This document shows positions 15,906 through 16,397 of a stretch of 27,620 bases of DNA, piece by piece (the stretch's first letter is position 1; the number at the start of each line of letters is the position of its first letter). Origin of the DNA: a virus; IMG/VR virus record IMGVR_UViG_3300046484_000120. One strand, given 5' to 3'. Under the pieces are notes generated by a model. That model ran no database searches and had not been told where the DNA came from. It worked only from the letters and a program-made list of their open reading frames with translations. The translations under genes and the position numbers were made by a program.

Positions 15906-16397
15906 ATGTCTTCTGTATTGTTTGAGTTCAATATACAAGGAACACTTGAGCATGCATTTGCAATAGCAGCATTCTATCACTCTGGTATAAAAGACAAAGG
16001 CGGACAACCATACTTCAAACATCCCCTTTGGATTGCCTCTGAGCTTCTTTACAGAGGATCAACTGATACAGAGATTTCTGTCGGAATACTGCATGATGTA
16101 GTTGAAGACACATCAGTAACGTTTGATATGTTACGAGAGTGGAGGTTCTCTGAAGAAATTATTGACGCCGTAAATGCTTTGACTAAGCGCGACGGAGAAG
16201 AAAGATGGGACTACATTGCAAGGGTAGCTCAAAATAGAATAGCTAAGAAGATTAAGCTTCTTGATCTACGTCACAATATGGACATAACAAGATTGAAGAA
16301 TAGAGGAAATCTTCAAGATAAAGATCTTCAAAGAATAAAGAGCTATGCCAGAGAATATGAGTTTCTTTCTGGTGGTTGTATAGGACCTATTTTCTAA
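15906..16397 (+). CDS. small alarmone hydrolase (SAH), (p)ppGpp hydrolase HD domain of the RelA/SpoT/Mesh1 family
   Basis: H...HPL.IA, GILHDVVEDTSVT, and KLLDLRHNMD match the SpoT hydrolase-domain motifs (HD, ED, DRLHNM). Confidence 0.7.
   Translation: MSSVLFEFNIQGTLEHAFAIAAFYHSGIKDKGGQPYFKHPLWIASELLYRGSTDTEISVGILHDVVEDTSVTFDMLREWRFSEEIIDAVNALTKRDGEERWDYIARVAQNRIAKKIKLLDLRHNMDITRLKNRGNLQDKDLQRIKSYAREYEFLSGGCIGPIF

Follow-up and report, generated by a model that had tools for sequence, protein, structure and literature searches.

A predicted Aph1/PbcSpo-type small alarmone hydrolase encoded ahead of a tRNA array in huge-phage DNA

Introduction

Small alarmone hydrolases (SAHs) of phages have been described as neutralizing toxic small alarmone synthetases (toxSAS) (Jimmy et al. 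2020), and removal of pyrophosphate from tRNA by an SAH has been reported (Kurata et al. 2021). HD-type alarmone hydrolases of jumbo phages (Iyer et al. 2021, PMC7824862) and the Aph family (Ahmad et al. 2023) have also been described. Here we analyzed an open reading frame (ORF) at positions 15906 to 16397 of IMG/VR virus record IMGVR_UViG_3300046484_000120, a stretch of viral DNA of 27,620 nucleotides that is referred to in full as the window. A first-pass annotation, made from the sequence alone, had read this ORF as a stand-alone SAH gene of a phage. The encoded protein was found to be a single-domain SAH that is assigned by its sequence to the Aph1/PbcSpo branch and that probably hydrolyzes adenosine 3'-pyrophosphates as a counter-measure to toxins of the RelA/SpoT homologue (RSH) type. 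What is new is limited to a distinct clade of huge phages, in which the enzyme bears short insertions and a conserved tail and its gene keeps its place ahead of a tRNA array.

The closest described enzyme of known structure, Aph1 of Bacteroides caccae (7SMG), is a tetrameric hydrolase that is specific for (p)ppApp and active with Mg or Mn (PMC10083569). Aph enzymes are defined by homology over a C-terminal stretch of 53 residues (Aph1 Y90-E143) together with the signature residues D24, R96, D116, R119, K133 and Y134, and the family has more than 2,000 members that occur in diverse contexts and are mostly unlinked to MuF toxins (PMC10083569). Among 12 Aph homologues that were assayed, 10 had no ppGpp activity and were ppApp-specific, and an Aph1 double mutant, D24R/R119A, gained ppGpp hydrolysis (PMC10083569).

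In the PbcSpo subfamily, gp220 of Salmonella phage PVP-SE1 neutralizes all five toxSAS tested, namely CapRel, PhRel, PhRel2, FaRel2 and FaRel (PMC7229694 Table 1). Phage SAHs of this branch counter both FaRel, which produces (pp)pApp, and CapRel, PhRel, PhRel2 and FaRel2, which pyrophosphorylate tRNA (PMC7229694); toxSAS such as CapRel are anti-phage defences. ATfaRel of Cellulomonas marina, a type IV antitoxin that Jimmy et al. group with the PVP-SE1 SAH in the PbcSpo subfamily, removes the 3'-pyrophosphate of tRNA, by which aminoacylation of pyrophosphorylated tRNA is restored in vitro.

Results and Discussion

The ORF encodes a single-domain small alarmone hydrolase

The gene under study was delimited as follows.

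15906 to 16397, plus strand: SAH gene, encoding a 163-amino-acid (aa) single-domain HD hydrolase of the RSH type, assigned to the Aph1/PbcSpo branch (from the ORF, phrog_990, the match to 7SMG, AlphaFold2 and Foldseek, and the comparison of nonsynonymous with synonymous change)

The ORF is intact, with an ATG start, a TAA stop and 163 codons without interruption. Its closest relative was found on the 131-kb contig IMGVR_UViG_3300014205_006828 (hereafter L012), in which the SAH is 89% identical and the whole gene order is kept. The orthologue on JGI contig Ga0598270_0000725 (L001) is 85% identical in protein and 77% identical in nucleotide sequence. Since the N-terminus M-x-x-VLFEFNIQGT is common to the SAH of the window and its orthologues (from three other metagenomic contigs, with that of L012 and P0001 among them), the start codon appears to be well placed. 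When the gene was compared to that of L001, the proportion of nonsynonymous differences (pN) was 0.09 against a saturated proportion of synonymous differences (pS) of 0.75, which indicates a protein-coding gene under purifying selection. Thus, the ORF is real and does not represent a chance reading frame. An overlapping ORF of 77 aa on the minus strand (15789-16022), which runs across the 5' end of the SAH gene, was without support.

Domain searches were consistent with an alarmone hydrolase and with nothing beyond the hydrolase part. By Pfam scan, the sole domain detected was HD_4 (PF13328) at residues 17-111, that is, over the N-terminal two thirds of the protein, with a marginal score of 27.4 bits compared to a gathering cut-off of 27.2. 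The NCBIfam RelA/SpoT model TIGR00691 matched by its positions 1-80 alone, which correspond to the hydrolase part (5e-15), and in PHROGs the protein fell into phrog_990, 'metal-dependent phosphohydrolase' (3e-50). The stand-alone, phage-borne nature of the SAH that had been proposed from the letters of the DNA, and the lack of a synthetase domain proposed with it, were thus both borne out. The Pfam search suggested at that stage placed the protein in HD_4, above the cut-off, and not in a generic HD family devoid of the ED and HNM residues. Taken together, these results revealed a single-domain RSH-type SAH that lacks synthetase, TGS and ACT regions. Relatives were abundant: a tblastn homologue was present in 374 phage records, and a search of 1.84 billion cluster representatives returned 5,776 matches at E<=1e-10.

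Sequence and predicted fold place the protein nearest to Aph1

When searched against the Protein Data Bank (PDB), the SAH was found to match Aph1 best (7SMG, E 2.9e-25, residues 11-155 versus 5-142), followed by Rel/SpoT hydrolase domains at about 1e-10 and by Mesh1 and PaSAH at 1e-6 to 1e-4. Residues 100-163 searched alone had 7SMG as their sole significant match (E 1.5e-6), and no Rel, SpoT, Mesh1 or PaSAH entry of the PDB was matched by this region. That the C-terminal part matches 7SMG alone mirrors the criterion by which the Aph authors separated Aph from ppGpp hydrolases.

A monomer model was built with AlphaFold2 on 76 homologues and had a mean predicted local distance difference test score of 90, with one helical bundle of nine helices. 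By Foldseek comparison of this model to the PDB, the four 7SMG chains ranked on top, with a root mean square deviation (rmsd) of 1.2-2.3 Å, a template modelling (TM) score for the target of 0.90-0.92 and 40-41% identity; the best superposition had an rmsd of 1.2 Å over 141 columns, a TM score of 0.92 and 41% identity. Mesh1, PaSAH, Rel and SpoT ranked below 7SMG, with an rmsd of about 3 Å or more (E values of about 1e-5 to 1e-3 for Mesh1, PaSAH and Rel), and all 50 of the PDB matches listed for the model were SAH, Mesh1, Rel, RelA or SpoT structures. The modelled protomer is compact: the additional helices found at the C-terminus of dimeric SAHs are absent, and residues 156-163 form a low-confidence coil with no helix.

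Compared to Aph1, to which it is about 41% identical over the whole length, the SAH has the same compact HD fold and the same HD, ED and NMDITRL motifs, and both are phage-encoded. The SAH differs by a four-residue insertion after helix 2 (about residues 46-49), by a three-residue insertion, NRG, after RLK, and by a conserved C-terminal tail, GGCIGPIF, which is disordered in the model and has no counterpart in Aph1. The two also differ in origin, as Aph1 is from a temperate phage and the SAH is from a huge and probably lytic phage.

PVP-SE1 gp220 was found to be 43% identical to the SAH (E 4e-29) and 38% identical to Aph1. Like the SAH, it is a stand-alone protein of a large phage (lytic in its case), has no adjoining toxin, and carries DLRHN and the D/R pocket residues. 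By contrast, gp220 has NSDVRRL where the SAH has NMDITRL, and its gene adjoins a thymidylate kinase gene, whereas the SAH gene adjoins a tRNA array. ATfaRel, which is likened to the SAH here by its description, differs in that its gene and that of the FaRel toxin belong to a toxin-antitoxin operon of three genes. The SSU5 PaSpo enzyme, also of a Salmonella phage, is a stand-alone SAH in which the HD/ED core at the N-terminus is the same (31% identity to the SAH of the window, E 1e-13). It falls into another subfamily, has a length of 213 aa, is without NMDITRL and has a C-terminal half unrelated to that of the SAH of the window. Membership of the SAH in PaSpo was ruled out, as the likeness is confined to the N-terminal core and the C-terminal halves are unalignable. 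On these comparisons the SAH is assigned to the Aph1/PbcSpo branch, with the PbcSpo placement made by way of the reference members PVP-SE1 gp220 and SSU5 PaSpo and not by the subfamily hidden Markov models of Jimmy et al. More distantly, Mesh1, PaSAH and the Rel/SpoT hydrolase domains share the superfamily fold and the catalytic metal and ED residues. They differ from the SAH in having 20-30% identity, an rmsd of at least 3 Å and extra C-terminal helices, and they carry Arg-rich guanine-binding residues where the SAH has D30-K31-G32.

The hydrolase site is intact and most Aph signature residues are present

The predicted catalytic and pocket residues, for which conservation was taken from an alignment of 76 family sequences, are encoded as follows.

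15993 to 15995, plus strand: D30, equivalent of Aph1 D24, a determinant of adenine specificity (7SMG alignment; at least 90% conserved; role from PMC10083569)
16020 to 16022, plus strand: H39, predicted first metal-binding histidine, in a KHP motif (invariant in the alignment)
16092 to 16112, plus strand: HDVVEDT, residues 63-69, with H63-D64 as predicted metal ligands and E67-D68 as the predicted catalytic pair (read in the sequence; the four residues are invariant)
16263 to 16295, plus strand: DLRHNMDITRL, with D120 as predicted metal ligand, N124 as predicted ribose contact, and the Aph-type NMDITRL containing D126 and R129, equivalents of Aph1 D116 and R119 (sequence and alignments)
16344 to 16346, plus strand: Y147, equivalent of Aph1 Y134 and predicted pyrophosphate contact; S146 before it replaces Aph1 K133 (alignments; PMC10083569)

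Ten residues (Y36, H39, L62, H63, D64, E67, D68, K117, D120 and N124) were invariant across the 76 homologues, and D30, G33, D126, R129, R143 and Y147 were at least 90% conserved. The RHNM motif (residues 122-125, nucleotides 16269-16280) is located within D120-L-R-H-N124-M (nucleotides 16263-16280), in which N124 aligns with Aph1 N114, a residue that the Aph authors equated with N150 of TtRel (PMC10083569). The complete hydrolase motif set, HDVVEDT and RHNM, that had been read in the first-pass annotation was therefore confirmed, with the HD, ED and D..N residues all intact. Five of the six positions of the Aph signature were found to match, as D30, R106, D126, R129 and Y147 correspond to Aph1 D24, R96, D116, R119 and Y134.

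An adenosine 3'-pyrophosphohydrolase that counters RSH-type toxins is the probable function

Since the fold and the site are established, the SAH can be predicted with fair confidence to remove a 3'-pyrophosphate from a nucleotide by metal-dependent hydrolysis. With regard to substrate and role, we consider it probable that the enzyme is an adenosine 3'-pyrophosphohydrolase by which the phage counters RSH-type toxins. In this proposal, H39, H63-D64 and D120 would hold the divalent metal, E67-D68 would activate water, and N124 and Y147 would hold the ribose and the pyrophosphate. As D30 and R129 occupy the positions at which Aph1 rejects guanine, they are predicted to shape a pocket that favors adenine over guanine. 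The huge phage would express the SAH inside the infected cell, where the enzyme would strip the 3'-pyrophosphate off (p)ppApp made by synthetases like Tas1, FaRel and Apk and, possibly, also off the pyrophosphorylated A76 of tRNA generated by toxSAS defences of the CapRel, PhRel and FaRel2 type. An adenine-selective pocket would fit both substrates, because the mark on tRNA, in which the 3'-OH of A76 carries a pyrophosphate, is likewise an adenosine 3'-pyrophosphate. Translation and purine metabolism may by this means keep running during infection, a role in the infection cycle that is proposed from the homologues and the gene context.

Dismantling of alarmone signalling in two forms had been proposed earlier for this gene, one directed at alarmone-based toxins and defences such as toxSAS and the other at the host stringent response. 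The former is the better supported of the two, and the ppGpp and stringent-response part fared less well, as the characterized members of the Aph1/PbcSpo branch prefer adenosine substrates or pyrophosphorylated tRNA.

Several observations weigh against the proposed adenosine-directed role. The sixth signature position is not kept: the SAH has S146, with K145 alongside, at the place of Aph1 K133. A second signature residue, Aph1 R96, is without an equivalent even in the functional PVP-SE1 enzyme. Two of the 12 Aph homologues assayed had modest ppGpp activity (PMC10083569), and ATfaRel degrades ppGpp as well as ppApp; the Aph signature therefore leaves ppGpp hydrolysis possible. The position of the gene beside tRNA and tRNA-related genes tilts slightly to tRNA repair but is no more than an association, since in large phages tRNA arrays are common gathering places for accessory genes. 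A scan for promoters and terminators around the SAH gene gave counts equal to those in shuffled sequence, that is, at chance level, and no operon evidence.

The best surviving alternative is a broad-spectrum SAH that would degrade host (p)ppGpp and keep the stringent response off, such that ribosome and nucleotide synthesis could continue through a long huge-phage infection. The SAH shares its catalytic core with the Rel/SpoT hydrolase domains, and for the HD-type hydrolases of jumbo phages the stringent-response alarmone was the proposed target (Iyer et al. 2021, PMC7824862); together with the ppGpp activity of the PbcSpo-subfamily ATfaRel and of the two Aph homologues, these points favor the alternative. 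The pocket argues otherwise, as D30 and R129 are found where Aph1 excludes guanine and ppGpp was cleaved by the D24R/R119A mutant only. The C-terminal third, moreover, matches only the ppApp-specific structure, and most of the assayed Aph homologues were inactive on ppGpp. We thus regard a ppGpp-directed role as unlikely.

Gene order around the SAH, which is followed by a tRNA array, is conserved

The genes that surround the SAH gene are listed below.

13933 to 15657, plus strand: 574-aa protein with a glycosyltransferase family 51 (GT51) peptidoglycan transglycosylase domain at its C-terminus, a hydrophobic segment at its N-terminus and a large unassigned region between them (PF00912 at 3.9e-38)
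15702 to 15872, plus strand: 56-aa CxxC...CxxC ORF (Zn-ribbon) directly upstream of the SAH gene (phrog_28447 at 3e-6; 52% identical and at the same position in L012)
16397 to 16651, plus strand: 84-aa ORF of which the ATG overlaps the SAH stop (TAATG), with no family match (55% identical in L012; in L001 an ankyrin-repeat gene takes its place)
16626 to 17174, plus strand: S-adenosylmethionine-dependent methyltransferase-like ORF of a family, phrog_19153, that is annotated as tRNA methyltransferase (1.4e-26; kept in L001 and L012)
17176 to 22564, plus strand: array of 12 tRNA genes (Ala three, Arg one, Met one, Thr three, Gly four) with ORFs between them (ARAGORN; a similar array follows the SAH gene in L012 and L001)
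20630 to 21505, plus strand: 291-aa stand-alone HD protein inside the tRNA array that resembles class-II CC/CCA-adding enzymes over their C-terminal part (PF01966; phrog_2244)

The order of transglycosylase gene, SAH gene, tRNA-methyltransferase-like gene and tRNA array was found to be conserved in the two related phage contigs. In L001, the genes for the transglycosylase, SAH, methyltransferase-like protein and HD protein are all kept, as are tRNAs, and the L012 array includes tRNA-Arg, tRNA-Met, tRNA-Ala, three tRNA-Thr and two tRNA-Gly genes. The GT51 protein is 63-69% identical, and the 291-aa HD protein 74-85% conserved, in L001 and L012. In relatives with an SAH of 85% identity, the 84-aa ORF is replaced by an ankyrin-repeat protein of 231-233 aa that follows the SAH (10502-11203 in L001 and 1128-1823 in contig L002). 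In a clade of about 55% identity, the SAH is near or adjoining YqeY, a Thg1-like tRNA-His guanylyltransferase and an ADP-ribosylglycohydrolase. A protein with a GT51 transglycosylase domain is, in itself, unusual cargo for a phage.

Within the neighborhood, Pfam methyltransferase domains scored below cut-off for the ORF at 16626-17174, and 10 of the 12 tRNA genes of the array were without an encoded CCA. Chain residues 307-502 of 3WFO, the CC-adding enzyme of Aquifex, were matched by the 291-aa HD protein (9.6e-12), which is without the nucleotidyltransferase head and may be a phosphoesterase of tRNA 3' ends. An HNH endonuclease ORF (19261-19968, plus strand; phrog_10822 at 3e-21) is also located within the array. 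A mobile homing endonuclease is suggested by the lack of a counterpart at this position in L001 and by an identity of only 38% in L012.

A narrower form of the proposed function was considered, in which the SAH would belong to a conserved module for tRNA protection, together with the methyltransferase-like protein, the CCA-enzyme-like HD protein and the array rich in tRNA-Gly and tRNA-Thr genes, and would have pyrophosphorylated A76 and not free alarmone as its substrate. This form is doubtful, albeit conceivable. FaRel2 picks tRNA-Gly as well as tRNA-Thr through determinants in the acceptor pairs; the four phage tRNA-Gly genes carry all four of these (G1-C72, C2-G71, G4-C69 and G5-C68), and at least one phage tRNA-Thr (CGU) has the Thr-type variant A5-U68. 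The idea that the phage tRNA-Gly and tRNA-Thr serve as isoacceptors that escape FaRel2-like toxins was unsupported, since the determinants are present and these tRNAs look like substrates. The SAH offers a handy test case in that its pocket predicts adenine specificity and its tRNA neighborhood poses free (p)ppApp hydrolysis against tRNA repair as the benefit to the phage.

The neighborhood also bears on a second alternative, self-immunity, in which the SAH would protect the infected cell or lysogen from a (p)ppApp synthetase toxin of the same phage, for example one fused to MuF, as in Apk2-Tis1-Aph1. Aph1 itself has such a role in a temperate Bacteroides phage, and a comparable arrangement was found for a homologue of the SAH, P0018 (50% identical), on contig L010 (6201-8420). 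The P0018 gene directly follows genes for a 523-aa MuF protein and a 75-aa Tis1-like protein (PF24154, 23.6 bits), the block is located between the portal and major capsid genes of an unrelated, smaller phage, and from its sequence this locus is classed as a toxin-immunity locus of the Apk2-Tis1-Aph1 type. The SAH gene of the window, unlike that of Aph1, has no adjoining gene for a MuF-fused synthetase toxin or Tis1. Neither a RelA_SpoT synthetase nor MuF or Tis1 was detected by Pfam scan of 29 other ORFs of the window (28 of at least 80 aa and the 56-aa ORF at 15702-15872), and PADLOC returned nothing for the SAH or its immediate neighbors. In L012 and L001 the conserved neighbors are the transglycosylase and tRNA genes, with no toxin, and the absence of linkage to MuF is shared with most Aph homologues. 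Self-immunity is an improbable role for this SAH, albeit a toxin gene may lie farther off in the phage genome, of which the window covers 27.6 kb.

Least probable of all, and very unlikely in our view, is an HD phosphohydrolase that acts on a non-alarmone substrate (NADPH, or a 2',3'-cyclic or 3'-phosphate tRNA end) as part of a nucleotide-metabolism or RNA-repair set, for although Mesh1 shares the fold and is a reported NADPH phosphatase, an NAD-kinase-like ORF is located 5 kb upstream, and the CCA-adding-enzyme-like HD protein and tRNA genes are nearby, the likeness to Mesh1 is weak (E 1.6e-6, 24-25% identity, rmsd 3.4 Å) next to that to Aph1 and the Aph-specific residues of the nucleotide pocket are conserved.

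The window derives from a huge phage

When positions 13000-20000 of the window were compared by megablast to 50,697 phage records, no match was detected, and the element was placed by protein similarity. The gene used for this placement was the following.

4929 to 7067, plus strand: 712-aa protein with major-vault-protein (MVP) shoulder and vault-repeat domains (PF11978 at 8.7e-28)

The MVP-like protein shared 42% identity with proteins from three records of uncultured huge phages, LR756501 and LR756503 (735 kb) and LR756500 (462 kb); beyond these records no relatives were found in the phage collection, and the protein is 73% identical in L001. In addition to the MVP-like gene, the window contains 13 tRNA genes (ARAGORN), HNH endonuclease genes and many genes known only from PHROGs. 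By protein similarity the window is assigned as a piece of a huge phage that is related to the 735-kb LR756501 lineage, and the whole phage genome, of which 27.6 kb is seen, is likely well over 100 kb. Regions of about 40 kb around the MVP-like gene in LR756501 and LR756500 contained no SAH.

Additional features of the window

The thirteenth tRNA gene of the window (10094-10184, plus strand; 91 nucleotides) has the anticodon CUA of an amber suppressor (called 'Pyl' by ARAGORN) and a long variable arm; the suppressor may be relevant for late genes elsewhere in the phage. Recoding of a stop codon that would affect the SAH was considered in view of this tRNA and rejected, as the SAH gene ends in TAA and no recoding is visible in the window, where the genes use TAA 14 times, TGA 12 times and TAG four times as stop.

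Upstream of the SAH gene are the NAD-kinase-like ORF (10299-11273, plus strand; PF01513 at 9e-8) and an ORF with a YpsA/DprA-like SLOG domain (11458-11934, plus strand; PF06908 at 8e-16), both of which fit nucleotide- and NAD-centered conflict themes. Two proteins with von Willebrand factor A domains are encoded toward either end of the window, at 1193-1864 on the minus strand (phrog_7371 at 7e-58) and at 23866-24951 on the plus strand.

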